Positions 1 to 27,352 of a DNA stretch of 32,000 nucleotides are shown here, in pieces. Origin of the DNA: Candidatus Omnitrophota bacterium (lineage in GTDB: Bacteria; Omnitrophota; Gorgyraeia; Zapsychrales; JANLHA01). The stretch covers positions 3,120,001-3,152,000 of the forward strand of contig OY759724.1 in assembly GCA_963662715.1 (NCBI GenBank), written 5' to 3'. The notes under the pieces were generated by a model. That model worked only from the letters and a program-made list of their open reading frames with translations. It made no database searches and was not told where the DNA came from. How positions within the stretch are numbered: position 1 is the first letter of the stretch; each line of letters begins with the position of its first letter. The translations under genes and the position numbers were made by a program.

Positions 1-552
1 CTCCGCTCGTTCCTGCGCCAGGACCCGGATGTCATAATGGTCGGGGAAGTGCGCGATCTGGAAACGGCCCAAATCTGTGTGCGGGCCGCCTTAACAGGGC
101 ACTTTGTTTTAAGCACCCTGCACACCAATGACGCCGCATCGGCGATCACCCGTCTGATCGACATCGGCATTGAACCCTACCTGCTAACACCGTCTATTGT
201 TATGGTGGTCGCGCAGCGTCTGGCCAGGCGTCTGTGTGTCAAATGTAAAGAAGCTTATGAGCCGGTTCCCGGCCAGTTCGGAGATTTGGACATAAAAAGT
301 GATTTGCTCTACAAAGCTGTCGGATGCGATGAGTGCAATCAGACAGGGTACCGGGGCCGGATCGTCCTGACCGAGACCATGCTGATCGATGACAACATCC
401 GCGATCTAATCGCCAAAAGGGCTAATTATACCGAGATACATGACCTGGCACGGAAAAACGGCATGACGACCTTGTTTCAAGACGGAATTAAGAAGGTGGA
501 AGCCGGAGTCACCAGCCTTGATGAAGTTGTCAGCGTCACAACAGTCTATTAG
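1..552 (+). CDS. Type II secretion / type IV pilus assembly ATPase (GspE/PilB/ComGA family), C-terminal part; the 5' end lies upstream of the window
   Basis: Frame 1 is open from base 1 ([19 protein letters not shown], the Walker B/Asp-box region of this family). It is followed by the His box [14 protein letters not shown] and the tetracysteine motif CVKC...CDEC. Stop TAG at 550-552. Confidence 0.9.
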
Positions 553-585: not shown

Positions 586-1836
586 TTGCCCAAGTTTCAT
601 TATGTTGTAAAAGACTCCCAAGGCAAGACGCTCGAGGTTGATACGGAAGCCTATGACAAGAACAGCCTTGTCCAGAAACTTCAACGGCAGGGCTATTTTA
701 TTATTAAAATTGAAGAAGGACTGAGTTTAGAGCAAAAAAGAGCCCAGGATTTAGCGCAAAATGCCAAGGCAAAAGAGAAAAAATTCTCTTACAACAAGAT
801 AAAACTCTCGGATCTATTATCTTTTGCCCGACAGCTGACAACCATGCTTGAAGCCGGTGTTTCTTTATTGAGAAGCATTGATGTCATTACCCAGCAGACC
901 CAAAGCGCAAATTTTTATAAGGTTTTGTCAAAAGTCAAAAAAGATGTCGAACAGGGAAGTTCTTTATCCCAGGCTTTAAACGAGCATCCCAAAGTCTTCA
1001 ATCAGTTCTGGGTCACCCTGGTGGAAGTCGGGGAAGCCTCCGGGACCCTGCCTACGGTCCTGAACCGCTTGGCGTTTTATCTCGAACAGGCCGAACGCTT
1101 CCGTTCCACGATTATGTCGGCCTTACTTTATCCTGCGGTCCTGTTTTGTATTTGTCTGGGGGCCATCAGCGTTTTTGCCCTGTTTATCGGGCCGCGTTTT
1201 GAGAATGTCTTTGAAAGCATGGGGGTGGAGCTTCCTGGGATCACCAGAATCCTTCTGGGCACTTTTCGTTTTATCAAAGAAAAATTCTTTTTAATTGTCC
1301 TTACCATAGGGACCGTTGTCTTCCTTATAAAGAAATGGACGAAGACCCAGCCTGGCCGCAAGAAAACAGAACAATTACTCTACTCCTTGCCAACTTTCGG
1401 AAGCATTTACAAACTCATCATTGTCGAACGCTTCACATCCCAGATGGCCATTCTGGTGGAAAGCGGGGTCCCGATCCTGCATGCGCTTGATATCTGTGAA
1501 CGGCTCGTTAATAACATAACCTGCTCGGCCATTATTGCCAGCATTAAAGAAAGTGTGCGGCAGGGAGAGCTTCTGGTGGGCCCCATGGAAAGGAGCGAGT
1601 TCTTTCCCTCTATGTGTATACAGATGATATCTGTAGGGGAAGAATCCGGAGAACTGAGTAAAATGCTTCAGCATGTCGCCACTTTTTATCAAGAAACGGT
1701 GGAAACCGCGATGAAACGCTTCGCGACTCTGATCGAACCCCTGATGCTGGTCTTTATGGGGGCTGTGATCGGGGTGATTGTTCTGGCGATGTTCCTGCCT
1801 ATGTTTAATATCGCGCAACTCGGCGGAGCGAAATAA
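586..1836 (+). CDS. Type IV pilus / T2SS inner-membrane platform protein (PilC/GspF/ComGB family)
   Basis: 416-aa ORF with a TTG start, preceded by aaagaaagg. It has two repeated GspF-type cytoplasmic domains (LSFARQLTTMLEAGVSLLRSI... and ERFTSQMAILVESGVPILHAL...) separated by hydrophobic helices. It sits directly downstream of the GspE-type ATPase. Confidence 0.9.
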   Translation: MPKFHYVVKDSQGKTLEVDTEAYDKNSLVQKLQRQGYFIIKIEEGLSLEQKRAQDLAQNAKAKEKKFSYNKIKLSDLLSFARQLTTMLEAGVSLLRSIDVITQQTQSANFYKVLSKVKKDVEQGSSLSQALNEHPKVFNQFWVTLVEVGEASGTLPTVLNRLAFYLEQAERFRSTIMSALLYPAVLFCICLGAISVFALFIGPRFENVFESMGVELPGITRILLGTFRFIKEKFFLIVLTIGTVVFLIKKWTKTQPGRKKTEQLLYSLPTFGSIYKLIIVERFTSQMAILVESGVPILHALDICERLVNNITCSAIIASIKESVRQGELLVGPMERSEFFPSMCIQMISVGEESGELSKMLQHVATFYQETVETAMKRFATLIEPLMLVFMGAVIGVIVLAMFLPMFNIAQLGGAK

Positions 1837-1859
1837 GAAAGCGCTTTCTTATTTTCTTC
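1832..1859 (+). terminator. Hairpin plus T-rich tail overlapping the platform-gene stop codon
   Basis: Perfect inverted repeat aataagaaagc/gctttcttatt (1832-1853) followed by ttcttc. The TAA stop (1834-1836) lies inside the stem. The stem is AT-rich, so strength is uncertain. Confidence 0.55.
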
Positions 1860-1879: not shown

Positions 1880-1908
1880 TTGACTTTGCTTTTCCCATAT
1901 GTTATACC
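1880..1908 (+). promoter_or_regulatory. Sigma70-like promoter candidate for the leader RNA / pilin operon
   Basis: TTGACT (1880-1885), a 17-nt spacer, then TATACC (1903-1908) with TG at 1900-1901 in the extended -10 position. This places a start site about 15 nt before the structured element. Manual pattern match only. Confidence 0.4.
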
Positions 1909-1930
1909 TTAACTAGATTGCGACATAACT

Positions 1931-2014
1931 TATCGATCAAGGTAAACTACCCGTGAGGGTGGGGCACAAAACTAAAGGGTCCCGGGAAAATCCCGCGACA
2001 GCCAGTTGCCGATA
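1931..2014 (+). promoter_or_regulatory. Candidate c-di-GMP-I (GEMM-I) riboswitch aptamer
   Basis: An outer helix can be drawn as tatcg(1931-1935)/cgata(2010-2014) plus caa/ttg plus gg/cc. GGUAAAC is followed by hairpin cuaccc-GUGA-gggugg (1947-1962, GNRA loop) and joiner GGCACAAAAC (1963-1972). A second hairpin is gucccggg-aaaau-cccgcgac (1979-1999), followed by the 3' segment AGCCAGUUGCCGAUA. These segments resemble, in order, the Vibrio Vc2 aptamer as I recall it: GGCAAAC-stem-GAAA-stem-GGGACGCAAAGC ... AGCGGGGUUACCGAU. The alignment is by eye. Confidence 0.6.
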
Positions 2015-2028
2015 AAAGGAAAATATGT

Positions 2029-2063
2029 GCCTATTTCACAGCGGGTGAAATAGGCTTTTTTTA
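2029..2063 (+). terminator. Intrinsic terminator (likely expression platform of the leader)
   Basis: 11-bp perfect stem gcctatttcac (2029-2039) / gtgaaataggc (2045-2055) with loop agcgg, immediately followed by ttttttt. Confidence 0.8.
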
Positions 2064-2173
2064 TTGAACCCAGCAACCCCTAAGGAGATGATGCTCAAAA
2101 CAAAAAAATAGATTGGAAAATGATTTGAGGTTAAATAAATTTGCGATATTGTATTATTAAAGGAGATATAAAA

Positions 2174-2596
2174 ATGAAAAACATGAATAATAAAAGCGGT
2201 TTTACCTTATTGGAAATCATCATCGTTATAATCATTGTTGGTGTCTTAGCCAGTTTGGCCTTACCTAGATTCTTTGCTACGGTTGAATATTCAAGAAGTA
2301 CAGAAGCTTTAGCGGCCATCAGCGCTGTCCGCCAGGCTCTGGAAAGATGTTATTTACAGAGAAACGGCGATTACACCGCCTGTAATGGTTTTGGGGTCTT
2401 GGACATTGAAGATCCGGGCAACTCCCCGAACAATCACTTCAGCTATGCTATCAGCGGAGGGTCTGCAACAGGATATACACTGACAGCGACAAGAAACACG
2501 CGTGATAATGGTGACGGCTCTTCAACGATCGTCATCTCGCAGGATGCTACGTCTGTCACTCGATCCGGAACAGGTGCGTTTGCAGGAATCCAGTAA
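2174..2596 (+). CDS. Prepilin-type (type IV pilin / pseudopilin), probable major subunit
   Basis: ATG at 2174 is preceded by aaaggagatataaaa. The N-terminus MKNMNNKSG|FTLLEIIIVIIIVGVLASLALP carries the class III signal motif (G-1, F+1, E+5, hydrophobic helix). It has two Cys and is the first pilin after the platform gene. The ORF-track start at 2141 was rejected because it has no RBS. Tandem stops TAA TAA. Confidence 0.85.
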   Translation: MKNMNNKSGFTLLEIIIVIIIVGVLASLALPRFFATVEYSRSTEALAAISAVRQALERCYLQRNGDYTACNGFGVLDIEDPGNSPNNHFSYAISGGSATGYTLTATRNTRDNGDGSSTIVISQDATSVTRSGTGAFAGIQ

Positions 2597-2630
2597 TAAG
2601 AACGTCTGAAAGTTAGCTTAGGAAGGACGG

Positions 2631-2660
2631 GGGAGCAACATTGGGTGCAATGTTGCTCCC
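2631..2660 (+). terminator. Strong stem-loop after the first pilin gene (partial terminator/attenuator or mRNA-stabilising hairpin)
   Basis: 13-bp perfect inverted repeat gggagcaacattg / caatgttgctccc with loop ggtg, followed by tcatttatat, which is only a weak U-tract. Confidence 0.6.
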
Positions 2661-2674
2661 TCATTTATATAACC

Positions 2675-3070
2675 ATGTTCAGATCCGATAAAACATATTC
2701 CCGCGACCGGGCTTTTACTCTGGTGGAAGTTATCCTGGTCACTGTCGTTTTCGGCGTAGCCGCGACATTCGCCGTGCCTCGCTTGGCTTACACGATCGAA
2801 CGCATGAGGGCGGAAGAAGGGAAACAAATTCTTCTGGCTCTCTATGCGGCTCAGAAACGATACTGGCAGGAGAACGGGCAGAATTATACGGATAATCTGG
2901 ATGATCTGGATGTCAACATCCGGAACAGTCCTTATTTTGAAAATATCCAGGTCAGCACGGCTTCTCCGCTTGCGCAACTGGAGAGGAAAAACGGCACTTA
3001 CACTTTGACGATCGATGAACAGGCACAAATTTATTGTACAGGGACGATGTGTTATGAAATGGGGTTATAG
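2675..3070 (+). CDS. Prepilin-type minor pseudopilin with atypical Ala at -1
   Basis: MFRSDKTYSRDRA|FTLVEVILVTVVFGVAATFAVPRL has F+1, E+5 and a hydrophobic helix, but Ala replaces Gly before the predicted cleavage site. It has a C-terminal CxxxxC pair. The start was chosen at the ATG downstream of the hairpin; the ORF-track start at 2645 lies inside the hairpin. Confidence 0.7.
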   Translation: MFRSDKTYSRDRAFTLVEVILVTVVFGVAATFAVPRLAYTIERMRAEEGKQILLALYAAQKRYWQENGQNYTDNLDDLDVNIRNSPYFENIQVSTASPLAQLERKNGTYTLTIDEQAQIYCTGTMCYEMGL

Positions 3071-3077
3071 TCATCAC

Positions 3078-3488
3078 ATGATGAAAAGGGACGGCCGCGG
3101 GTTTACGGTCGCGGAACTCATTGTTGTCGTTATTATCATGGGGGCGATCGCCGGGTTTGCCATTCCTAATTATACCAGATCCGTTGAGAATGCTCACTAT
3201 CAGGACGCGGTTTTACAGCTCAAGGCGATCCATTCCGCCCAGCAGATCTACAAAGTGCGGTCCGGGCAGTACTGGCCTACGGACGGGAGCACTCATTATG
3301 TTTCTGATATCAATAATGATTTGAATTTGAATGTTATTGAAGACGGGGTCACGTATGCCTGCGCCAGCAGCGATCCTGCCGTAGGGTTTTCCTGTCAGGC
3401 GCAGAGAGACGGCGGGGCATTCACCGTCTCTGTTGATCAAACGGCCCTATCGACTTCAAACCCCAGTTGTACGGGCAGTTGCCCATAA
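3078..3488 (+). CDS. Prepilin-type minor pseudopilin
   Basis: MMKRDGRG|FTVAELIVVVIIMGAIAGFAIPNY has G-1, F+1 and E+5. It has four Cys in two close pairs. The start is ambiguous: ATG 3054, 3078 and 3081 are all in frame, and 3078 avoids overlapping the preceding gene. Confidence 0.75.
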   Translation: MMKRDGRGFTVAELIVVVIIMGAIAGFAIPNYTRSVENAHYQDAVLQLKAIHSAQQIYKVRSGQYWPTDGSTHYVSDINNDLNLNVIEDGVTYACASSDPAVGFSCQAQRDGGAFTVSVDQTALSTSNPSCTGSCP

Positions 3489-3501
3489 CCGGGAGAATCT
3501 C

Positions 3502-3891
3502 ATGAGTCAACGTCAGACATATCCCTTGTCCCTGCGTCCTAAATCAGGATTCACCATCACGGAAGTTGTTATTGCAACGCTGGTCTTTTCCATTGTCGTA
3601 GGCGGGGCTATTTCCGCTCTCTCAGCGTTAAAAAAACCCGCCTATGCTTCGAAAGAAGAGGTGACCGCAGCCTATCTGGCCAAACAGATCCTGGAAGAAC
3701 TGCGTACGGACGTCAGTGCGGAAAACTGGGACAGCGGCGGTCTTAACCCCAACGGCGGGCCTTCGGCCAACGGGACATATGATAATTTATCGACCATCAC
3801 GATAGACGGCGTCACCTATACTCCGGTTTATCAGGTTGAAGATGATAACGAAACAGGGAGCCGCAAGGTCACATTAACGGTGAATTGGTAA
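3502..3891 (+). CDS. Prepilin-type minor pseudopilin (GspI/PilV-like)
   Basis: ATG at 3502 is preceded by gggaga. MSQRQTYPLSLRPKSG|FTITEVVIATLVFSIVVGG carries the prepilin motif. The C-terminal ...RKVTLTVNW resembles the ending common in GspI/PilV-type minor pilins. It has no Cys. Confidence 0.8.
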   Translation: MSQRQTYPLSLRPKSGFTITEVVIATLVFSIVVGGAISALSALKKPAYASKEEVTAAYLAKQILEELRTDVSAENWDSGGLNPNGGPSANGTYDNLSTITIDGVTYTPVYQVEDDNETGSRKVTLTVNW

Positions 3892-4508
3892 TGATGAAAC
3901 AAAAATTTAAAATAGCCCGGAATTCCGGCCTGACATTGACAGAACTTGTTATCGCGTCTATCCTTGTCGGGATCGTTATGCTGGGCATTTATTCCGTGGA
4001 TTATGCCTTGCGCGGGTCAAGGGCCGCGGCTTCGGACGATTCACTGCTGGCCATGAAGACTTGGGCCACAATGGGACATATTACGCAGAACGCCAAACTG
4101 GCGGTAGGGGATATCTCAGACCCGGGTATTGCCGCTTCATCGGGCAATAATTATTTGTGTTTCCGCCAAGATACGACAATAACTCCAAATAATTATAACG
4201 ATGATGTTTGGCAATGTTACTCAAAACTTTCCAACAATATTCATGCCTGCGCTAAAACAGCCGGGGCAGGACCTTCGGCATGCGCTAATACAGATCAAAT
4301 CATAGGGACGTATGCGTTAAAAGATTCCTGCGCTTCAGACTGCGAGCTTTTTACCTATGATGTCGTTTTAGACAATGTTTTAAACAAAATTTATGTCGAC
4401 ATTTCCCTGACAAACCGTCTGAAACCGACGTCTCCTTCAGACCCCATGTCCAACCCTGATTATACGCTCCAGACCCGTATCTTTCCGGAAGGGCACAGCT
4501 ATAATTAA
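3891..4508 (+). CDS. Prepilin-type minor pseudopilin (larger, PilW/GspJ-like), Cys-rich
   Basis: ATG at 3891 overlaps the preceding stop (TAATG). MMKQKFKIARNSG|LTLTELVIASILVGIVMLGIY has G-1, L+1 and E+5. It has six Cys. An upstream TTG at 3885 is also possible. Confidence 0.75.
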   Translation: MMKQKFKIARNSGLTLTELVIASILVGIVMLGIYSVDYALRGSRAAASDDSLLAMKTWATMGHITQNAKLAVGDISDPGIAASSGNNYLCFRQDTTITPNNYNDDVWQCYSKLSNNIHACAKTAGAGPSACANTDQIIGTYALKDSCASDCELFTYDVVLDNVLNKIYVDISLTNRLKPTSPSDPMSNPDYTLQTRIFPEGHSYN

Positions 4509-4610
4509 CCCCTTCTGCGAAATCGTGCCTCAAAGACAATATTGATTATTTAGAAATACCCCGAGATAAAAAACGCGAGGAAAAACGGGGATGTTTTTCA
4601 AACATATGGA

Positions 4611-5165
4611 TTATCGGCTCTCTGAATAATCCTTAATGGAATCCTTGAAACTTTTTGTGCCCTTTTTCTCGGATTTTGCGGACAGAAACATGGGGATTAA
4701 AACAAAGTAAACGACCACGGCAATAAATATCGTTATGGCAACCGTGACCCCTGTGACCTGTTTGTTAAAATCTATCTTACCGACTTTAAGTTCCCGGGAC
4801 AGGAACGGGAGGTTGCTGATCGTTTGATGTAATTGATAGGATGAAAAAGGCCTTTGAACAATGGCGCTGACTTTTAACGCGACAAATTCCTTCCTGGGCA
4901 CATTTTCACTATCCTGCAGAATCAGAATAGGGGTCCGGGAAAACTTTCCTTTTTGGCGAATCTGCCGGCAAAGCTCGACAGCATTGATCCCGGACAGGGA
5001 GGAACTCAATAAAATAACGGCCGGGGGCTTGTTGTTGGCCAGTAAGTCCTTGGCTTCCTGCCCGTCACTGGCATACAAAACGTCATAACCGTGATTCTTA
5101 AATCCTTTAACCAGGCCTTCGGCCTCTTTCCCTGATTCCTGGGCCAACAATAAAGAACGGGTCAT
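4611..5165 (-). CDS. Membrane-anchored degenerate (pseudo-)receiver domain protein
   Basis: 184 aa with aaggag 7 nt upstream of the ATG. The N-terminal ~120 aa have a CheY-like layout (SLLLAQES..., PPAVILLSSSLSGINAVELCRQIR, TPILILQDS, SAIVQRPF). The acidic pocket, phospho-acceptor Asp, Thr/Ser and Lys positions read Q-E, S, Q and R. A C-terminal hydrophobic helix VTGVTVAITIFIAVVVYFVLIPMFL is followed by a Lys-rich tail. Confidence 0.7.
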   Translation of the reverse strand: MTRSLLLAQESGKEAEGLVKGFKNHGYDVLYASDGQEAKDLLANNKPPAVILLSSSLSGINAVELCRQIRQKGKFSRTPILILQDSENVPRKEFVALKVSAIVQRPFSSYQLHQTISNLPFLSRELKVGKIDFNKQVTGVTVAITIFIAVVVYFVLIPMFLSAKSEKKGTKSFKDSIKDYSESR

Positions 5166-5358
5166 TTCATGACTCCTTGTATGAATAATGAATTTGGGGT
5201 TATTATACTACACGCTTTATGTCAAGTCATTATTCTATTTAGAATTTTTTTCGGATCAAAACCAGGAAAATTTTTTCCAAAGACACATAAAGACGACAGC
5301 AAGGTTGTAAAAACCGGCCGTATAGACAATTTTTATCAGACAAATAAATAAAACATAC

Positions 5359-5387
5359 TGTACAGCCCGATAAAAATCTGCTATAAC
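5359..5387 (+). promoter_or_regulatory. Candidate promoter for tRNA-Ala
   Basis: TGTACA (5359-5364), a 17-nt spacer, then TATAAC (5382-5387) with TG at 5379-5380. It ends about 11 nt before the tRNA 5' end. Manual match only. Confidence 0.3.
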
Positions 5388-5398
5388 AGATTTCAAAT

Positions 5399-5471
5399 GG
5401 GCCGGTAGTTCAGCTGGGAGAACGCATGGTTCGCAATCATGAAGTCGGGGGTTCGAATCCCCCTCGGTCCA
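5399..5471 (+). tRNA. tRNA-Ala (anticodon CGC)
   Basis: Cloverleaf read by hand. Acceptor stem is gggccgg/tcggtcc with the G3:U70 alanine identity pair. D arm is gttcagctgggagaac. Anticodon stem is catgg/tcatg with loop ttCGCaa. T arm is ggggg-ttcgaat-ccccc, and the discriminator is A. CCA is not encoded (acttt follows), and a T-run follows. Confidence 0.95.
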
Positions 5472-5529
5472 CTTTTCTTTTTTTTTGCATTCACGGAATC
5501 CAATGACGATACGGCCCTTTTAATATTAT

Positions 5530-6267
5530 ATGCACCGTTTCTTCACAAAATTCACTCTGAACAATGACTCCGTAGATATTACGGCCCCTGAAGAAATTCA
5601 TCATATCCGAAATGTTCTGCGTTTAAAAAAAGGGGATAAAATCTGTATTTTTAACGGTGAGGGGGAAGAGGCCTGCGCTACGGTATCTTTGCTGACCGCG
5701 AAAAAAATCAGAGCAGAAATTTATCAACATCATAAATACGACACGGCCGGCCGGAGCATTATTCTCGCCTGTGCCGTCCCCAAAAAAGCGAAACTGGAGT
5801 ACATCATCGAAAAAACCACAGAGCTGGGCGTTACGGAAATCATACCGGTGAAAACTCAGCGTACGGAAATTCAATTAACTCCGGAACGGGCAGAAAAAAA
5901 ATGGAACCGCTACCAGTCCGTTGCTATCAATGCTGCCAAGCAAAGTCAAAGGCCGACCATCCCGAGGATCCACCCCTACCAGACATTCCCAACAGCCTTA
6001 ACGATGCTCTCTCAAGATTCTATGCTCGGCCTTATCCCGTGTTTAGCCGGGGAATACCAAAATATCAAGGATGTTTTAGCCCGGCCGTCACCCCCAAAAA
6101 CCGTTATGCTGTTTATCGGACCTGAAGGAGACTTCACTCCGGCAGAAATACAAAAGGCCGTTGAAGCGGGAGTCGTTCCTGTTTCACTGGGGAGAAACAT
6201 CTTAAAAGTTGATACCGCCGCTATCATCAGCGTGGCTTTAGCCCAATTCCTTTGTCATAATGATTAG
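5530..6267 (+). CDS. rsmE: 16S rRNA (uracil1498-N3)-methyltransferase
   Basis: 245 aa. The MHRFF... N-terminus, HHIRNVLRLKKGDKICIFNGEG and the C-terminal SPOUT knot region FIGPEGDFTPAEI...LGRNILKVDTAA are typical of RsmE. Confidence 0.85.
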   Translation: MHRFFTKFTLNNDSVDITAPEEIHHIRNVLRLKKGDKICIFNGEGEEACATVSLLTAKKIRAEIYQHHKYDTAGRSIILACAVPKKAKLEYIIEKTTELGVTEIIPVKTQRTEIQLTPERAEKKWNRYQSVAINAAKQSQRPTIPRIHPYQTFPTALTMLSQDSMLGLIPCLAGEYQNIKDVLARPSPPKTVMLFIGPEGDFTPAEIQKAVEAGVVPVSLGRNILKVDTAAIISVALAQFLCHND

Positions 6268-8065
6268 AAAACCGATCTCATTTCAAGCTAAGCAAACATG
6301 GACCCTGTGGGCTGTTTTTCTCCTGGCCCTGGTCTTGCGGCTGGGATATCAGCATTTCCTCAAAACCAACTACCTCTTCTATGATTCCCCCAGTTCAGAC
6401 GTGACCTATTACCAGGACTGGGCCAGGGACATTGCCGCCGGAAACTGGATAGGGCAGAAAACGTTTTTCGGGCTCCCGTTATACCCCTATTTTCTCGCCG
6501 TTCTTTTCCGCCTGAGTCTGGGACATACGGAAATCGTGCGGTTATTTCACATGATGATCGGCTCGCTGAACTGCGTCCTGATTTTTCTGATAGGACAAAA
6601 ACTCTTCTCCTACCGCACCGGGCTGACCGCAGCGATACTTGCGTCATTCAACTTTATTCTTATTTACTACGACTGGATCATGATGCCGGTTCCGCTTCTT
6701 ATCATGCTTTCACTCCTGTTGCTCTGGTGTTTACTGTCCGATGCCCTTAAAGACCGGCCGAAAGACTGGTTTCTCTTTGGAATTCTGTTGGGTTTGAGCG
6801 CTTTAGGTGACGGGAAATTCCTGTTTTTCCTGCTGCTGCTGATTTTGATGATTCTTTTTAAATGGCCGTATCACATAAGGATTAAACTGTTTAAAATCAT
6901 CCTTCCTCTAGGCCTCGGCTGCGCTTTAATGCTGCTGACTGTTTCTTACCGCAACAAGGTTGTCGGAGGGGATTGGACTTTCATTAGTGCGCAAAGCGGA
7001 CTCAGTTTTTATACGGGAAATAACCGGGTGGCCACCGGCGTTTATGATCACCCGGCTTTCCTAAGACCGTCTCATCAGGGACAGGACGACGACCAGAAAA
7101 TCATTGCGGAAAAGATAGCGAAAAAACAACTGTCCCCCTCGGCCGTTTCCCGTTTCTGGAGAGCCAAAGCCCTGAAATTTATCGCTGAAGAACCGGGCCT
7201 CTACCTGAAATTATTGCTCCGAAAATTCTGTTTGTTCTTCACTGATACGGAAGACGCCCATGATGCGGACCTTTTGATGCAAAGGGACTGGCGGAAAAAA
7301 ATGGATATCAATCCCTATTGGCTCATATGTCCGCTGGGGATCGGGGGCCTCTTGCTGAGCCGAAAAAAGACTTCCTATTCCGTTTACCTCAACTTCATCC
7401 TCGCAAGTCAGCTGCTGATGACTCTCGTCTTCTTTCTCTCAACGAGGCATCGGGCGACAATCATCCCGGTATTCTTACTTTACGAGGCTTTCGCTTTGCT
7501 TTGGATATGGGACAACATCCGGAAGCCAAGCTACCGGCGTTTAGGGCTGGCCGCTGTCTTCCTTCTGATTTTTCTTTGTGTTTTTCCTCCGGAAGAATCG
7601 GATTCATCATATACGGATTTCGTTAAATGGAGCAAAAGCGGGACCGTCTTTTTAAACCGGGGAGACACTCCTGCCGCGCAAAATTATTTCTATAAAGCGC
7701 TCGCTCTTCGGCCGAACGACAGCACGACCCTTTATAATCTAGGGAACGCTTTCGTGCAGGCGAAAAATTTTGCCAAAGCTCAGGAATATTATCTTCGCGC
7801 CGTGAATATTTGTCCTCATAATGTCGATGCCCTTTTTAACCTGGCTTACACTTATGAACAGACCGGGCAATTTGAATCCGCCCTGAAATATTATCAGCAG
7901 GTCAAACAATATCAGCCCGAAAGTCTGGATGTCTGGTTCCGCTTAAGTCAGGTCTATTATCAGACAGGGGATTGCCAGAAGGCTGTGCTTTACTATCAAA
8001 ATATCATTGAGCGGCAACCGGCCCTTTCTGAGACACTTAGGAGCTGTTTAAAAAGCTGTTTCTGA
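6260..8065 (+). CDS. Polytopic GT-C-type glycosyltransferase (PMT/ArnT-like) fused to C-terminal TPR repeats
   Basis: 601 aa with about 10 or more hydrophobic helices. A first-loop acidic motif (YDSPSSDVTYYQDWARDIAAGNW) resembles PMT_2/ArnT family enzymes. The C-terminal ~140 aa form about four TPR units (ALRPNDSTTLYNLGNAF..., CPHNVDALFNLAYTY..., QPESLDVWFRLSQVY...). The start overlaps the rsmE stop by 8 nt. Confidence 0.7.
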   Translation: MIRKPISFQAKQTWTLWAVFLLALVLRLGYQHFLKTNYLFYDSPSSDVTYYQDWARDIAAGNWIGQKTFFGLPLYPYFLAVLFRLSLGHTEIVRLFHMMIGSLNCVLIFLIGQKLFSYRTGLTAAILASFNFILIYYDWIMMPVPLLIMLSLLLLWCLLSDALKDRPKDWFLFGILLGLSALGDGKFLFFLLLLILMILFKWPYHIRIKLFKIILPLGLGCALMLLTVSYRNKVVGGDWTFISAQSGLSFYTGNNRVATGVYDHPAFLRPSHQGQDDDQKIIAEKIAKKQLSPSAVSRFWRAKALKFIAEEPGLYLKLLLRKFCLFFTDTEDAHDADLLMQRDWRKKMDINPYWLICPLGIGGLLLSRKKTSYSVYLNFILASQLLMTLVFFLSTRHRATIIPVFLLYEAFALLWIWDNIRKPSYRRLGLAAVFLLIFLCVFPPEESDSSYTDFVKWSKSGTVFLNRGDTPAAQNYFYKALALRPNDSTTLYNLGNAFVQAKNFAKAQEYYLRAVNICPHNVDALFNLAYTYEQTGQFESALKYYQQVKQYQPESLDVWFRLSQVYYQTGDCQKAVLYYQNIIERQPALSETLRSCLKSCF

Positions 8066-9310: not shown

Positions 9311-10726
9311 ATGAATAAAAGAGGAGGCATTCTTTCACTCATATTGCTGCTTTCCTTTTTTGTTTCCGCCGGGCAGACGGAAGAGCTTTCTTTGATACAC
9401 GCTGTTGAGAAAGTTGCGAAAGACGTGGGGCCTGCGGTTGTCTCGATCCGGACGGAACAGGTCCAGTATTATAGAAGCGCGCCTTATTACAGCGGGGATT
9501 TGTTTGACCAGTTTTTCTATGATTTTTTCGGGGGACACCCCCAATATCAGCAAAAACGCCAGGGACTCGGCTCCGGGGTTATCATTGACAGCCGGGGATA
9601 CATCCTTACGAATGAACATGTTGTTCGCGGAGCAGACAAGATCACGGTCATGCTGCCTGACGGCCGGAGCTTTAACGGACAGCTTAAAGGGATTGACAAC
9701 CGCTCGGATTTAGCCGTGCTTAAGATCGATCCTTTGGAAATGGTTCTGCCGCCGATTGGGAATTCCGATGATTTGAACATCGGACAATGGGTTGTGGCCA
9801 TTGGGAATCCTTTCGGTCATGTGCTCAATGATCCTCAGCCTACGGTCACAACCGGCGTCGTAAGCGCTTTACACAGAGCTTTACCGGCGACAACCCGCCG
9901 GGATACGGATTATTCTGATCTTATTCAGACCGATGCCGCGATCAATCCCGGGAATTCCGGGGGACCGCTGGTGAATCTCAAAGGGGAAATCATCGGCATT
10001 AACGTCGCCATTTTTTCCACCTCAGGAGGATATCAGGGGATAGGGTTTGCCGTACCGATCAATTACGCCAAAACGATCGTTGACCAGATTATTAAAGGCA
10101 AAAAAGTGGAGCAGGGGTGGATCGGTATCAGCATTCAGGATATGGACTATCGCTTGGCAAAATACTTTAATCTTCCTTCTGCGGAAGGGGTGCTGACCTT
10201 GAAAGTCCTGGACGACTCTCCGGCCCAGGAGGCAGGACTCAGGGATAGAGATATTATTTTATCGATCAATGACGTTAAAATGCGTTCCAGCGCGTTACTC
10301 ATCAAATATATCTCTAACCGGGATATCGGAGAGACCGTGGATATCAAAGTGCTGCGCCAAGGCGGGGAAAAAAATATCCCTGTCAAAATTGCCCGGAGGC
10401 CGGAACCAGAAGACCTTTGGGAATCTAAAACTCCGGCCGGGCAGGATAATTTGGCTGACGCTCAGCCCTGGAAAGGATTACAGCTGCAGAACATTACGGA
10501 AGAGTTTAAAGACCAGTTCCGTCTGGAAACGATCAAAGGTGTCATGGTGACAGATGTTCTCCCCAACAGCCCGGCCCAGCATGCCGGCATCCGGGAAGGA
10601 GACATCATTATCGCCGTTAACAATCAGGCGGTCCGGAATCTGCAGGATCTAAACCGTATTAAAGAAACTGTTAGCGGGAATTGCCTGATACAAACATTAA
10701 GAGGATTTTTTGTTATTGAGGATTGA
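9311..10726 (+). CDS. htrA: Periplasmic serine endoprotease HtrA/DegP/DegQ family with two PDZ domains
   Basis: It has a signal peptide and the catalytic triad contexts TNEHVV, DLAVLKI and GNSGGPL. Two PDZ-like segments follow (GWIGISIQDM..., KGLQLQNITEEF...GVMVTDVLPNSPA). Confidence 0.92.
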   Translation: MNKRGGILSLILLLSFFVSAGQTEELSLIHAVEKVAKDVGPAVVSIRTEQVQYYRSAPYYSGDLFDQFFYDFFGGHPQYQQKRQGLGSGVIIDSRGYILTNEHVVRGADKITVMLPDGRSFNGQLKGIDNRSDLAVLKIDPLEMVLPPIGNSDDLNIGQWVVAIGNPFGHVLNDPQPTVTTGVVSALHRALPATTRRDTDYSDLIQTDAAINPGNSGGPLVNLKGEIIGINVAIFSTSGGYQGIGFAVPINYAKTIVDQIIKGKKVEQGWIGISIQDMDYRLAKYFNLPSAEGVLTLKVLDDSPAQEAGLRDRDIILSINDVKMRSSALLIKYISNRDIGETVDIKVLRQGGEKNIPVKIARRPEPEDLWESKTPAGQDNLADAQPWKGLQLQNITEEFKDQFRLETIKGVMVTDVLPNSPAQHAGIREGDIIIAVNNQAVRNLQDLNRIKETVSGNCLIQTLRGFFVIED

Positions 10727-10728
10727 TT

Positions 10729-13362
10729 ATGCTTACAACATCTGATATTCGAAGAAAGTTCCTGGAATTTTTTGCCGCAAAAGGCCATTCGGTCATAAAA
10801 AGCGACTCCTTGGTGCCGAAGAACGATCCGACCGTCCTGTTCACGACAGCCGGTATGCAGCAGTTTAAACGCCAGTTTCTGGGACATATCGAAGGATATA
10901 CCCGTGCGGCCTCATCTCAAAAATGCCTGCGGACCGACGACCTGGAACAGGTCGGAGAAACGAACTTTCATCACACCTTTTTTGAGATGCTGGGGAATTT
11001 CTCTTTCGGAGATTACTTCAAGAAGGAAGCGATTGCCTGGGCCTGGGAATTTCTTACGGAAATCCTGCAGTTACCCCCGGACAAACTCTGGGTCTCTATT
11101 TATAAAGATGATACGGAGGCGGAAAAAATCTGGCTCAAAGGGATAAAAATACCGCCGGAACGTTTTGTCAAACTGGGGGATAAAAGCAATTTCTGGCCGT
11201 CTAACGCAAAACTGGACGGCCCTAACGGCCCCTGCGGCCCCTGCTCGGAAATATTTTATGATTACGGCCCTAATCCTCAATGCACGAACAGCAACTGCAA
11301 CCCTGAGTGTGATTGCGGGCGGTTCGCGGAAATTTGGAATCTGGTTTTTACACAGTTTAACCGGAAGGACGGCGGGGAACTGGAGCCTCTTCCCGCAAAA
11401 AATATTGATACGGGAATGGGCCTGGAACGTTTAGCCGCGGTCTTGCAAGGAAAACCGAGCAATTTCGATACGGATATCTTTCTGCCTATCCGTGAAACCA
11501 TTCGACAGCATATCAGCGGAGAACTGACCCGCAAAGAGGAATGCATTATCGCAGACCATGCCCGCGCCATTGTCATTGCGATCTGTGACGGCATTATTCC
11601 CTCGAACAAAGAACGCGGGTCTGTCATAAAACGTCTCATTACGGACAGTGCGAATATCGCGCTCTCTTACGGGCCGCAGGAACCGCGCATTTATCGATTA
11701 GTGCCGGTTGTTGTAGACGTGATGAAGGACCAGTATCCGGAACTGATTGAAAAGGCCGAAAACATGGCCGAACTTATCAAAAAAACCGAAGAGGCTTTTA
11801 TCCAGGTCCGGGCTCTGCGTATCCCGGAGTTGGAAGCCCTGAACCTGTCCCAAATGAGCGACCAGCAAAGAGGGGAAGTCTATTTTAAATTCCGGGACAC
11901 TTACGGCCTGCCTTTGTCCGTCATCCTTGCAACCGCCAGAAAAAAAGGGATAAAAGAAGAGGACATCCAGAAAGATTTGCAGGTTTACAGCCGGCTCATG
12001 CAGGAACAGAAAGACCGGTCCAGGGCTGCGAGTAAAATGATGGGGGACGTTTTCACGGACACCGAACTCAATCTGAATGTCGCCAAAACAAAATTTTCCG
12101 GATACGAGGAAGAGCGGACGACAAGCCGCATCCTTAAACTTTTTGTCAATCATACCGAACAGGACTCTGTCCAAAAGGGGGAGGCCGTCCAATGTATTCT
12201 GGATGAAACACCCTTCTATGCCGAATCCGGCGGGCAGATCGGAGATACCGGAACCCTGACCGGGCCTAACGGGACCATACAAATTACAGACACACAAAAA
12301 ATCTCTGATATTTTCATTCATGAAGGGAAGGTCCTGGACGGGACAGTTTCCGCCGGAGACCGGGTTGAAGCCGGTATTGATATGGAACGCCGCTTGTCGG
12401 TTATGCGCAACCACACGGCGACGCATCTTTTGCAAGCCGCCCTGAGGCAGGTGCTGGGTTCTCATGTGCAGCAGCAGGGCTCATCGGTTGACCAGGAGAA
12501 ACTGCGTTTTGATTTTTCTCATCCCAAGGCCTTAACAGCTGAAGAAATCAGGGAAATCGAAGACATTGTCAATTCGCTTGTTCTCAGATGCGACACGGTG
12601 ACCAAAGAATCCATGTCCTTGGACGAGGCAAAAAGCAAAGGGGCCCTGGCCTTTTTTGCCGAAAAATATGCCGATACGGTAAGGGTGGTGTCCATCAGCG
12701 ACTATTCAACGGAACTCTGCGGAGGCACCCATCTGGACTCAACGGGGCAAATCGGACTGTTTAAAATAATAAATGAATCCGCTATTGCGCAGGGGATCAG
12801 ACGGATCGAAGCGCGTACCGGCCGGAGAGCTTATCAGCTCATCATGGAGCAGGAAGACCAGATGAAACGCATGGCCCAACTGCTTAAAGCCCCTTTAAAC
12901 GAAATTGTTGACCGGACGTCCGTCCAGCTGCAGCGCATGAAGCAACTGGAAAAGGATATTGAAAAATACCAGTTTGAAACGATAAAGCAAACCATCCCGC
13001 AACTGATTGATCAGGCGGTCTTGCTGGACGGCATTCATATTGTCCGGAACACTTTCGAAAATGTGTCGATGAGTGTCTTAAGAAAACTGGCGGATACCAT
13101 TAAGCAGCGGGTCTCGGCGGTCATCGTCCTGGGGTCTCAATCAAAGACTGATGCCCAAATTCTGGTCGCCGTAAGCCAGGAACTCACCAAGAACGGATGG
13201 CACGCCAAAGATATTATCCAGATCATGGCCCGAAAGATTCAAGGCAGCGGCGGAGGCCGGGACCAAATGGCCCAGGCCGGCAGCAAACATCCGGAACTCT
13301 TATCAGCCGCGATGCAGGAAGCCGAAAATTTTGTTAAAGCTAAAACGAGCCACTCGGAATAA
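10729..13362 (+). CDS. alaS: Alanine--tRNA ligase
   Basis: 878 aa with the N-terminus MLTTSDIRRKFLEFFAAKGH, class II motifs, the editing domain HTATHLLQAALRQVLG...CGGTH and a C-terminal DHHA1-like GGGR region. ATG at 10729 is preferred over the TTG at 10723. Confidence 0.97.
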   Translation: MLTTSDIRRKFLEFFAAKGHSVIKSDSLVPKNDPTVLFTTAGMQQFKRQFLGHIEGYTRAASSQKCLRTDDLEQVGETNFHHTFFEMLGNFSFGDYFKKEAIAWAWEFLTEILQLPPDKLWVSIYKDDTEAEKIWLKGIKIPPERFVKLGDKSNFWPSNAKLDGPNGPCGPCSEIFYDYGPNPQCTNSNCNPECDCGRFAEIWNLVFTQFNRKDGGELEPLPAKNIDTGMGLERLAAVLQGKPSNFDTDIFLPIRETIRQHISGELTRKEECIIADHARAIVIAICDGIIPSNKERGSVIKRLITDSANIALSYGPQEPRIYRLVPVVVDVMKDQYPELIEKAENMAELIKKTEEAFIQVRALRIPELEALNLSQMSDQQRGEVYFKFRDTYGLPLSVILATARKKGIKEEDIQKDLQVYSRLMQEQKDRSRAASKMMGDVFTDTELNLNVAKTKFSGYEEERTTSRILKLFVNHTEQDSVQKGEAVQCILDETPFYAESGGQIGDTGTLTGPNGTIQITDTQKISDIFIHEGKVLDGTVSAGDRVEAGIDMERRLSVMRNHTATHLLQAALRQVLGSHVQQQGSSVDQEKLRFDFSHPKALTAEEIREIEDIVNSLVLRCDTVTKESMSLDEAKSKGALAFFAEKYADTVRVVSISDYSTELCGGTHLDSTGQIGLFKIINESAIAQGIRRIEARTGRRAYQLIMEQEDQMKRMAQLLKAPLNEIVDRTSVQLQRMKQLEKDIEKYQFETIKQTIPQLIDQAVLLDGIHIVRNTFENVSMSVLRKLADTIKQRVSAVIVLGSQSKTDAQILVAVSQELTKNGWHAKDIIQIMARKIQGSGGGRDQMAQAGSKHPELLSAAMQEAENFVKAKTSHSE

Positions 13363-26899: not shown

Positions 26900-27352
26900 C
26901 TAATGGGGAGGGGAGGAAGGGGAAGTTTTTTCTGAAGAACCGCCCGGGCGCCACCCTTCAAACCAGTGTTGCACAAGGTCCTTCTTTTTGAACTCAAAAG
27001 CATATTTTAAAATCGTATCCTGAATATCCAAAGTCGTGTCGTCAAAACTGATTCCGGCCAGGTTTCCGTAACCTGAAACACGACTCCACGCCACATGCCC
27101 TTCAACTTCGACGGCTTTTGCCTCGGTTAAATAGATCGTCAGTTTGACTTTCTGATCAGGTTTGAGCTGCTGGCGCATAACGAGACAAGTCCCGGCGCAA
27201 CTCAGATCCATACTCCGGCATTCTAAAGAATCAAAATTCTCATCATAACGGCATAAAACTCTATTATTAACCTCCCAGCGGGGCAGATATCTTTTCTCTG
27301 GGCCGGTGAATTCAGGTGATTGGGATTGCGTATTTGGGCTTGTATTTTCCAT
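26900..27352 (-). CDS. Stand-alone PilZ domain protein (predicted c-di-GMP receptor)
   Basis: 150 aa containing both halves of the PilZ signature: RYLPR (RxxxR) near the N-terminus and DLSCAG (DxSxxG) about 30 aa later. A beta-rich segment follows, and the tail is Ser/Pro-rich. No purine-rich RBS precedes the ATG. Confidence 0.75.
   Translation of the reverse strand: MENTSPNTQSQSPEFTGPEKRYLPRWEVNNRVLCRYDENFDSLECRSMDLSCAGTCLVMRQQLKPDQKVKLTIYLTEAKAVEVEGHVAWSRVSGYGNLAGISFDDTTLDIQDTILKYAFEFKKKDLVQHWFEGWRPGGSSEKTSPSSPPH

Follow-up and report, generated by a model that had tools for sequence, protein, structure and literature searches.

The region examined here, positions 1880–2173 within the gap between the pilC/gspF platform gene and the first prepilin gene, lies in a 32,000-nucleotide (nt) stretch of DNA from a Candidatus Omnitrophota bacterium (JANLHA01; GCA_963662715.1, OY759724.1, 3,120,001–3,152,000, forward strand), hereafter termed the window. 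This region is probably the promoter and leader of the first prepilin gene, with a class-I cyclic di-GMP (c-di-GMP-I, or GEMM-I) riboswitch acting as a transcriptional OFF switch. The unit of promoter, aptamer, and terminator is conserved before the same pilin across a clade of uncultured Omnitrophota. The identification of the element at 1930–2015 as a c-di-GMP-I aptamer is close to certain, and the aptamer would very likely act through the terminator that follows it. The predicted direction, in which high c-di-GMP would lower pilin mRNA in the manner of the Cd1 riboswitch of Clostridioides difficile, is held with less assurance, as a probable reading. The elements of the leader and the gene that it would regulate are as follows.

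1880–1908, forward strand: sigma-70-type promoter, with the −35 element TTGACT at 1880–1885, a 17-nt spacer ending in TGt, and TATACC at 1903–1908 (extended −10 element TGtTATACC, 1900–1908)
1930–2015, forward strand: c-di-GMP-I (GEMM-I) aptamer, RF01051, 86 nt, two hairpins enclosed by an outer helix
1930–1935 with 2010–2015, forward strand: outer helix P1 of the aptamer
1942–1943 with 1966–1967, forward strand: helix of two base pairs (2-bp helix) of the aptamer
1947–1952 with 1957–1962, forward strand: first hairpin, P1a, of the aptamer, with the GNRA loop GUGA
1970–1981 with 1997–2007, forward strand: second hairpin, P1b, of the aptamer, with a distal stem at 1983–1987 with 1991–1995
2029–2062, forward strand: intrinsic terminator, 11-bp stem 2029–2039/2045–2055, loop AGCGG, T7 at 2056–2062 (−16.6 kcal/mol, z −5.6)
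2160–2165, forward strand: Shine–Dalgarno sequence AAGGAG of the pilin gene, read in the sequence, with ATAAAGGAGA conserved in the leader alignment
2174–2596, forward strand: first, probably major, prepilin/pseudopilin gene, the regulated gene (Pfam N_methyl and ComP_DUS)

The gap extends from the end of pilC/gspF at 1836 to the prepilin ATG at 2174 and measures 337 nt. A preliminary description, made from the letters of the sequence, had given its length as 338 nt, which is one too many, and had rightly denied that it is a plain spacer; the elements it described are all present, where it placed them or a few bases away. These include the promoter TTGACT-17-TGnTATACC, which is found in the sequence in that form, and an element of about 84 nt with two hairpins, one of them GNRA-capped, inside an outer helix, which corresponds to the 86-nt aptamer with its GUGA loop. 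The resemblance it noted to the core of c-di-GMP-I aptamers is confirmed by Rfam. In a comparison of the whole window with 4227 Rfam families, RF01051 (c-di-GMP-I) matches 1931–2013 of the forward strand over model positions 1–87 of 87, with 57.8 bits against a gathering score of 35 and an E-value of 5.5e-9, far beyond chance.

The architecture agrees with that of GEMM-I, with stems of 2 and 6 bp separated by a 3-nt internal loop, a GNRA loop, an A-rich linker, a variable second hairpin, and a closing P1. The GUGA loop is of the GYRA type, and, in keeping with this subtype, the Rfam alignment shows deletions at the columns of the second hairpin that correspond to the tetraloop receptor. Furthermore, the conserved G, A, and C of the RF01051 consensus fall on G1941, A1968, and C2009, which we take to be the ligand contacts G20, A47, and C92 in the numbering of the Vc2 crystal structure. 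The G20-equivalent is G in the window and in 27 of the 29 aligned orthologues, and the A47- and C92-equivalents are A and C in all of them. Because the positions aligned to G20, A47, and C92 carry the canonical bases, c-di-GMP is favored over cyclic GMP-AMP (cGAMP) and is inferred to be the ligand; the preliminary description had reached the same preference from the retained G alone.

Related families account for the element less well. The 3'3'-cGAMP (GEMM-Ib) class has A at the G20 position, at odds with G1941 in the window, and among the 29 aligned leaders such an A occurs only in L040 (L-numbers denote the related loci). The c-di-GMP-I-GGC variant (RF03167) reaches 55.8 bits, short of its gathering score of 59, and the G of the variant consensus is replaced in the window by A1968. 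In a narrower search, RF03167 displaced RF01051 by E-value, and five related loci (L004, L013, L014, L017, and L030) bear the RF03167 label, all of them with A at the defining position. Such labels probably arise from competition between related models, because the RF03167 model includes P1 and the RF01051 model does not. For c-di-GMP-II, whose model the preliminary description had also considered, there is no Rfam match in the window at the gathering threshold, nor in 1800–2250 at E-values up to 10.

The leader was compared with 42 related loci, fetched via orthologues of the window PilC. The orthologues with 84–85% identity are located in genome bins labeled Candidatus Omnitrophota, some of which were deposited as "uncultured Planctomycetales". 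Rfam finds 31 c-di-GMP-I matches in 30 of the 42 loci, all on the pilC strand and 3' of pilC, and three more loci (L019, L026, and L038) contain an aptamer with a long insertion in P1b that was seen by eye and missed by Rfam; no aptamer is found at L016, L018, and L021. Among the 32 genome-derived leaders, 29 have a TTGACA-17-(TGn)TATAC(C/A/T) promoter 23–51 nt 5' of the aptamer core, every one has a terminator after the aptamer, and 31 are followed by a gene for an orthologous prepilin of about 140 amino acids with the N-terminus GFTLLEIIIVIIIVGVLASLALPRFF, the contig of the remaining leader ending too early. In the 29-sequence alignment, the aptamer helices are paired in 91.7% of cells, compared with 30–45% when the partners are slid, and 12 pairs have changed on both sides, values that none of 500 shuffles reach. 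The covariation among orthologous leaders that the preliminary description had looked to is thus present; an example is the exchange of C-G for A-U at 1983–1995 between the window and its closest relative, L001.

The unit also remains with the pilin when the neighborhood is rearranged. Where pilC is 1.9–4 kb distant, and where a gene for a 587-amino-acid membrane protein is inserted after pilC (L003, L006, and similar loci), the riboswitch stays beside the pilin, and in L029 two tandem paralogous pilin genes each have their own promoter-aptamer-terminator unit (10334–10447 and 11339–11453). Since the linkage holds through insertion and duplication, the riboswitch is an attribute of the pilin gene rather than of the pilC junction. 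This linkage, together with the conserved promoter, sustains the earlier suggestion of control over the filament subunit that is independent of the ATPase and platform genes.

Several relatives deviate from the common form. In L024 (7466–7610), L026 (7400–7540), and L038 (7290–7440), the second hairpin is enlarged by some 60 nt of inserted sequence, which looks like a branched extra domain and at which the Rfam match is truncated or lost; a further feature common to the three loci is a conserved stretch of about 90 nt (GGAAATATCGAAAACT...GGCGGGATCGATATACCGCGACTTAGG) that separates the terminator from the pilin gene. L032 has a shortened leader at about 7430–7545, in which P1, P1a, and the CCTATTCT terminator are kept and the second hairpin is gone, probably making it a ligand-blind derivative. 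L040 has A at the G20-equivalent (AAAAAAGTAAAC, about 4113–4125), the cGAMP-type base, and L019 has U there (about 7430–7445), as well as a C at the position of the P1a-closing G, which is otherwise invariant; these two variants may reflect a change of specificity, decay, or an assembly error. In L079, two riboswitch units stand in tandem on one contig (998–1031 and 1616–1649).

The terminator ends 112 nt before the pilin ATG, close to the distance of about 110 nt in the preliminary description, whose 11-bp stem and U7 tract are those listed above. It lies about 15 nt beyond the aptamer in the window. Across the leaders it is separated from the aptamer by a linker of 12–43 nt without overlap, and in the window the aptamer and the terminator form a legal joint structure of −42.8 kcal/mol. 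The 5' arm of the terminator has the form (G)CCTATT(C/T) in 26 of 31 terminators, usually with GTG before it. Such conservation is unexpected for the arm of a plain terminator. The conserved arm is complementary to the aptamer strand AGGGTAGGGCAC, which comprises the 3' strand of P1a, the A47-equivalent, and, from the 2-bp helix next to the ligand, the 3' half. In the window, the two strands of the predicted antiterminator are as follows.

1953–1968, forward strand: predicted aptamer-side strand, with the core GGCACA at 1963–1968 and a possible extension into the P1a loop and 3' strand at 1953–1962
2026–2039, forward strand: predicted terminator-side strand, UGUGCC at 2026–2031, extending through the terminator 5' arm to 2039

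Duplexes between the aptamer strand and the terminator arm range from −14 to −27 kcal/mol across the leaders, with a median z of −4.3 against shuffled arms. The pairing often extends further, the initial bases of the terminator loop joining with the P1a loop and 5' strand, and there both sides change together, as in UCCGUA/UAUGGA of L003, ACUCGUA/UAUGAGU of L017, and CCUGCA/UGCAGG of L037. Since the distal register differs between lineages, with bulges of 1–3 nt, covariation in fixed columns is infeasible for the antiterminator, and the energies of cognate and permuted duplexes were compared in its place. In these permutations, which take no account of shared ancestry, the cognate duplexes of the genome-derived leaders average −20.5 kcal/mol compared with −18.8 ± 0.4 for permuted ones (0 of 10,000 permutations), and the variable distal part alone gives −6.47 compared with −4.88 ± 0.37 (0 of 10,000). 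With metagenome leaders added, the distal part gives −5.19 compared with −4.03 ± 0.24 (again 0 of 10,000). The preliminary description had found no convincing antiterminator pairing and had left the direction of control undecided; the comparison instead reveals a co-evolving pairing between the aptamer core and the terminator 5' arm, which provisionally predicts OFF.

Folding of incomplete transcripts gives a similar picture. When the transcripts are cut before the 3' arm of the terminator, at least 5 arm bases are captured by the aptamer in 14 of 31 leaders, and 3–12.6 kcal/mol is gained in 29 of 31. In the window, the 6-bp helix between 1963–1968 and 2026–2031 has a probability of about 0.97 in a transcript ending before the terminator 3' arm and is populated at 0.6–0.9 for 3' ends from 2032 to 2050. 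This helix removes three G-C pairs at the base of the terminator, weakening the hairpin from −15.4 to −6.1 kcal/mol. The extended antiterminator lies 3.1 kcal/mol above the minimum-energy fold in the window, and it is itself the minimum-energy fold in 14 of 31 related leaders. The minimum-energy fold of the whole leader was set aside as a guide to the switch, as it does not reproduce P1 and the 2-bp helix and extends the terminator by pairing of the A-tract with the U-tract.

In the proposed mechanism, transcription would proceed from the sigma-70-type promoter at 1880–1908, with a predicted start near 1915, and the nascent RNA would fold into the class-I aptamer at 1930–2015, with its GYRA loop and without a tetraloop receptor. 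The aptamer and the terminator could coexist, and the antiterminator would compete with both of them by pairing the core strand GGCACA (1963–1968) with UGUGCC and the terminator 5' arm (2026–2039). In the absence of c-di-GMP, the antiterminator would capture the G-C base of the terminator stem and polymerase would continue into the pilin gene. Binding of c-di-GMP would lock the aptamer core and leave the 5' arm free, thereby allowing the terminator to form and transcription to stop at about 2062. Since the aptamer and the terminator do not overlap and the ligand should block the antiterminator, termination is favored and the predicted logic is OFF.

The same arrangement recurs beyond the genome-derived loci. 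Metagenome contigs were scanned once with a degenerate pattern of the aptamer core of this clade, giving 63 aptamer cores on 62 contigs. A terminator is present in 50 of the 51 leaders with enough sequence, the CC(C/T)ATT arm occurs in 38 leaders, and the co-evolution signal of the antiterminator repeats (2 of 5,000 permutations). A prepilin follows in 32 of 49 metagenome leaders, and most of the others precede secreted proteins. Exoproteins with a TPS domain (Pfam TPS, E = 1e-24) follow the aptamer in L043, L061, L092, and L094, and weaker matches to a YadA head (24.9 bits, cut-off 25) or to UspA1-type repeats are found in L046, L048, L085, and L104. The leaders of these adhesin-like genes have the same aptamer subtype and the CC(C/T)ATTC terminator arm, and one switch type appears to govern a small set of surface-structure genes.

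The pilus system may also sense c-di-GMP at the protein level, as the domain content of its ATPase indicates. In L001, the genes 5' of pilC are pilM-like, pilO-like, one without a Pfam match, a secretin, and a PilB/GspE ATPase (4218–5948), the N-terminus of which is an MshEN domain (Pfam E = 2e-15; NCBIfam c-di-GMP_motif, 65.4 bits against a cut-off of 38). MshEN consists of two 24-residue motifs separated by 5 residues (PMC5013675). Both motifs, RLGxxLLxxGLLxxxxLxxxLxxQ, are present in the L001 ATPase with the same 5-residue spacing; motif II is a perfect match, and motif I carries K in place of R and K in place of G. The strict motif pattern matches 24 of 36 ATPases. The window contains only the C-terminal 171 residues of its own ATPase, which are 89% identical to the C-terminus of the L001 protein, and on this basis an MshEN domain is inferred for the N-terminus, which lies outside the window. 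In addition, a 150-amino-acid PilZ-domain protein is encoded at 26900–27352 on the reverse strand of the window (Pfam E = 1.5e-10). The PilZ protein and the MshEN ATPases suggest that these bacteria use c-di-GMP signaling, and on the sequence evidence the pilus may sense c-di-GMP twice, as protein and as RNA. A bolder proposal, which is rather doubtful, is that c-di-GMP acts on one pilus with opposite signs, through an MshEN ATPase, a type usually activated, and through an OFF riboswitch of the major pilin whose terminator mimics P1a, with the same platform placed before the TPS/YadA-like adhesin genes. If this were true, the pilus would be under incoherent, pulse-generating control, and there would be a small regulon of c-di-GMP-repressed surface structures, the reverse of the usual adhesion rule.

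Between the terminator and the Shine–Dalgarno sequence of the pilin gene, the leader contains one further conserved element.

2067–2093, forward strand: post-terminator leader motif AACCCAGCAACCCCTAAGGAGATGATG, an extended Shine–Dalgarno-like sequence with an ATG, conserved in 14 leaders

The general form, AACCC-N2-(C/T)AACCC-N2-3-AAAGGAG(T)GATG, occurs 10–40 nt 3' of the terminator in 14 pilin leaders (L001 7485–7511, L006 9293–9320, and L007 7499–7525, among others), and the next 90 nt or so are unconserved. The motif occurs once per locus and nowhere else in the loci, and its region is unstructured (z +1.3); the single occurrence and the lack of stable structure speak against a general signal. 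A related AGAAAGGGAGGTGATG is kept after the promoter in L016 and L018, which have no riboswitch. The motif resembles the complement of the canonical 3' end of 16S rRNA. It could stabilize the leader in the STAB-SD manner, provide a ribosome standby site, or open a mini open reading frame that is not conserved; in the 14-leader alignment, the short reading frames from its ATG span 3–22 codons and show no conservation. As a promoter it was rejected, since no sigma-70-like site was found in it.

A number of observations weigh against the OFF switch. In the clade of the window (the window, L001, L002, and L036), the antiterminator is short and captures 3 of the 11 arm bases, the cognate pairing is no better than the non-cognate one, and the window terminator wins at equilibrium once the 3' end passes 2053; any effect in this clade would therefore be kinetic, and the confidence in OFF logic is limited accordingly. 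Five leaders (L007, L010, L011, L013, and L041) have other terminator arms; of these, L007 and L013 show moderate complementarity to the aptamer, and L010, L011, and L041 show weak complementarity or none. The blindness of the permutation tests to common descent counts on the same side. Moreover, P1 and the 2-bp helix hardly form when folding is computed from secondary-structure energies alone, so that the model depends on ligand and tertiary contacts, to which the software gives no score. On the biological side, OFF control of the pilin, and apparently of adhesin-like genes too, opposes the usual pattern in which c-di-GMP promotes adhesion, and it would oppose the activation expected of an MshEN-type ATPase. 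The same aptamer and terminator could instead follow ON or more complex logic, with the ligand promoting read-through and both the pilin and the MshEN-type ATPase being activated; the terminator might, for instance, be disfavored by the bound aptamer or by some unrecognized structure. Such logic would fit the general promotion of adhesion and pili by c-di-GMP, the MshEN domain in the ATPase of the relatives, the occurrence of the same leader type before adhesin-like genes, the weakness of the window antiterminator, and the ON behavior of the C. difficile pilA1 riboswitch (PMC6366702). However, the terminator stands clear of the aptamer behind a 12–43 nt linker, and the sole conserved and covarying alternative pairing joins the aptamer core to the terminator 5' arm, which the ligand would block; ON logic is thus considered unlikely.

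The remaining alternatives to the c-di-GMP-I OFF switch concern whether the leader acts on the pilin at all and what it binds. The promoter, aptamer, and terminator might constitute an independent small RNA or a leader at which termination is constitutive, with transcription of the pilin from a second promoter 3' of 2062, perhaps within the AACCC...GGAGATGATG motif. The window terminator always forms at equilibrium, and a conserved motif directly past it with 112 nt more of leader before the ATG would suit this proposal, but a scan of 2056–2173 on the forward strand gave no sigma-70-like site. In L016 and L018, furthermore, the motif sits 3' of the promoter-like TTTATAAT and would therefore be transcribed as leader RNA, and the riboswitch has stayed beside the pilin while that gene was rearranged and duplicated, which speaks for regulation in cis; the proposal is judged very improbable. 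Equally slim is the prospect that the aptamer senses another cyclic dinucleotide, such as 3'3'-cGAMP, or is promiscuous without specificity for c-di-GMP. The GEMM-I aptamers that bind c-di-GMP are almost the same as those that bind cGAMP, and selectivity among cyclic dinucleotides is steered by the G20 position as one factor and not as a strict filter (PMC9262584); two relatives, L040 with A and L019 with U, vary at this position. Against this stand the G in the window and in nearly all orthologues, the invariant A and C at the other two contacts, and the PilZ protein and MshEN domains, which indicate c-di-GMP signaling in these genomes. A chance resemblance or a decayed, non-functional relic has a negligible probability. 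Decay or remodeling is seen in some relatives, namely L032 without P1b and L019 with changes at two otherwise invariant positions, but in the window the E-value is 5.5e-9 with every core position intact, and the aptamer covaries across loci whose PilC is only 56–85% identical; the RF01051 matches and this covariation effectively refute the relic already.

Among characterized systems, the c-di-GMP-I OFF switch proposed here is most similar to Cd1 in the flgB leader of C. difficile, an OFF riboswitch of the same aptamer class that also controls a surface or motility structure. In Cd1, terminator and aptamer can form together, and an antiterminator built from an aptamer strand and the terminator 5' arm competes with both, so that ligand binding favors termination; in this antiterminator, C87 and G86 of the binding pocket pair with downstream nucleotides (PMC9262584). 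By contrast, the antiterminator in the window uses an internal strand, made up of the P1a 3' strand, the A47-equivalent, and one half of the 2-bp helix, its 3' side. The target of Cd1 is flagella and its host belongs to another phylum, and its OFF behavior is measured whereas that of the window is predicted. The class-II riboswitch Cdi-2-4 of C. difficile pilA1 likewise combines a riboswitch and a terminator in the leader of a major pilin, with read-through to downstream pilus genes (PMC6366702), but its fold is unrelated and its ON logic is opposite to that predicted for the window. The pilM riboswitch of Geobacter metallireducens (GEMM-Ib) also places a GEMM-I fold before pilus genes and acts on an intrinsic terminator; however, it senses 3'3'-cGAMP, is ON, has a mutually exclusive aptamer and terminator, and controls the pilM assembly genes and not a pilin (PMC9262584). 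The window, in comparison, has G at the G20-equivalent and a terminator clear of the aptamer.

The architecture of the element is that of the GEMM motif (Weinberg et al. 2007) and of Vc2 from Vibrio cholerae, including members with a GYRA loop and no tetraloop receptor, although most of the terminators reported in 2007 overlapped the second hairpin, predicting ON (PMC1950547). The genes listed with GEMM at that time include the pili genes pilM, pilO, pilQ, pulF, and cpaA (PMC1950547). The preliminary description was correct that a GEMM-I element splits the pilus cassette, with the qualification that GEMM elements beside pilus genes are not unusual. In the literature searched, no link between Omnitrophota and riboswitches was found beyond passing mentions, and no GEMM-I member of this type in a pilin leader is described. 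The new features are the host phylum, the class-I aptamer in a pilin leader, the internal aptamer strand as the partner of the antiterminator, and the possible pairing with an MshEN ATPase. The c-di-GMP-I class itself is one of the most common kinds of riboswitch, and Cd1 already provides the OFF design in which the terminator is set apart from the aptamer. A specialist would be unsurprised; as a textbook class, the element leaves the knowledge of RNA sensing unchanged.

The significance of the leader lies in the organism and in the regulatory design. It offers an experimentally tractable handle on regulation in the uncultured phylum Omnitrophota, in the form of a short RNA that can be assayed in vitro, both for its ligand and for termination, with no need to grow the organism. 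The pilin, and apparently adhesin-like genes too, would be wired directly to c-di-GMP, probably negatively, while the ATPase probably binds the same messenger, which suggests layered and possibly opposing control of a surface structure. Meanwhile, the roughly 90 leaders, with their variants at G20, insertions in P1b, and a deletion of P1b, constitute a natural mutational series, and the conserved terminator arm that would double as the antiterminator partner makes them a well-populated natural example of an OFF switch.

The leader is embedded in a cluster of pilus genes, for which the window contains the following further features.

37–552, forward strand: C-terminal part of a PilB/GspE-type pilus assembly ATPase gene (Pfam T2SSE, E = 6e-52), which extends beyond the 5' end of the window
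586–1836, forward strand: PilC/GspF platform protein gene (Pfam T2SSF, E = 1.5e-58)
1826–1859, forward strand: hairpin over the pilC stop codon, core 1830–1855, outer pairs 1826–1859, followed by TTTTCTTC (−10.4 kcal/mol, z −2.8)
2629–2662, forward strand: 15-bp hairpin directly 3' of the first pilin gene, from structure prediction
2645–4508, forward strand: four further prepilin-type genes, at about 2675–3070, 3015–3488, 3433–3891, and 3885–4508, each with Pfam N_methyl

The platform protein and the N-terminus of the first pilin also match NCBIfam models, of the GspF/PilC and GspG/PilA-like kinds, respectively, with scores under the model cut-offs. The hairpin on the stop codon of the platform gene, already noted in the preliminary description, contains a perfect 12-nt inverted repeat and is likely a weak terminator or a 3'-end stabilizer of the upstream operon. 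The four downstream prepilin-type genes could be minor pilins that are reachable by read-through. The hairpin at 2629–2662 is very stable and overlaps the annotated start of the following prepilin reading frame; it is possibly an attenuator or a 3' stabilizer that keeps the major pilin in excess of the minor pilins. On the minus strand of the gap, no conserved open reading frame or RNA-family match was found that would give a competing reading.

The insert between pilC and the riboswitch-pilin unit in one sub-clade (L006 7261–9024, L003, L004, L008, L012, L040, L005, and L009) is a polytopic membrane protein of 587 amino acids with a TPR-like C-terminus. The TPR/PMT_2 membrane protein encoded at 6260–8065 of the window was considered as the same gene and proved unrelated (BLASTP E = 0.45). 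The rest of the window, apart from the PilZ-domain gene, is ordinary chromosomal DNA. Just past the pilin cluster and convergent with it, a gene at 4611–5165 on the reverse strand encodes a receiver protein of the response-regulator type whose C-terminal segment is hydrophobic. The receiver gene is followed by a tRNA-Ala(CGC) gene at 5399–5472 on the forward strand, which occupies the same relative position in many related loci.

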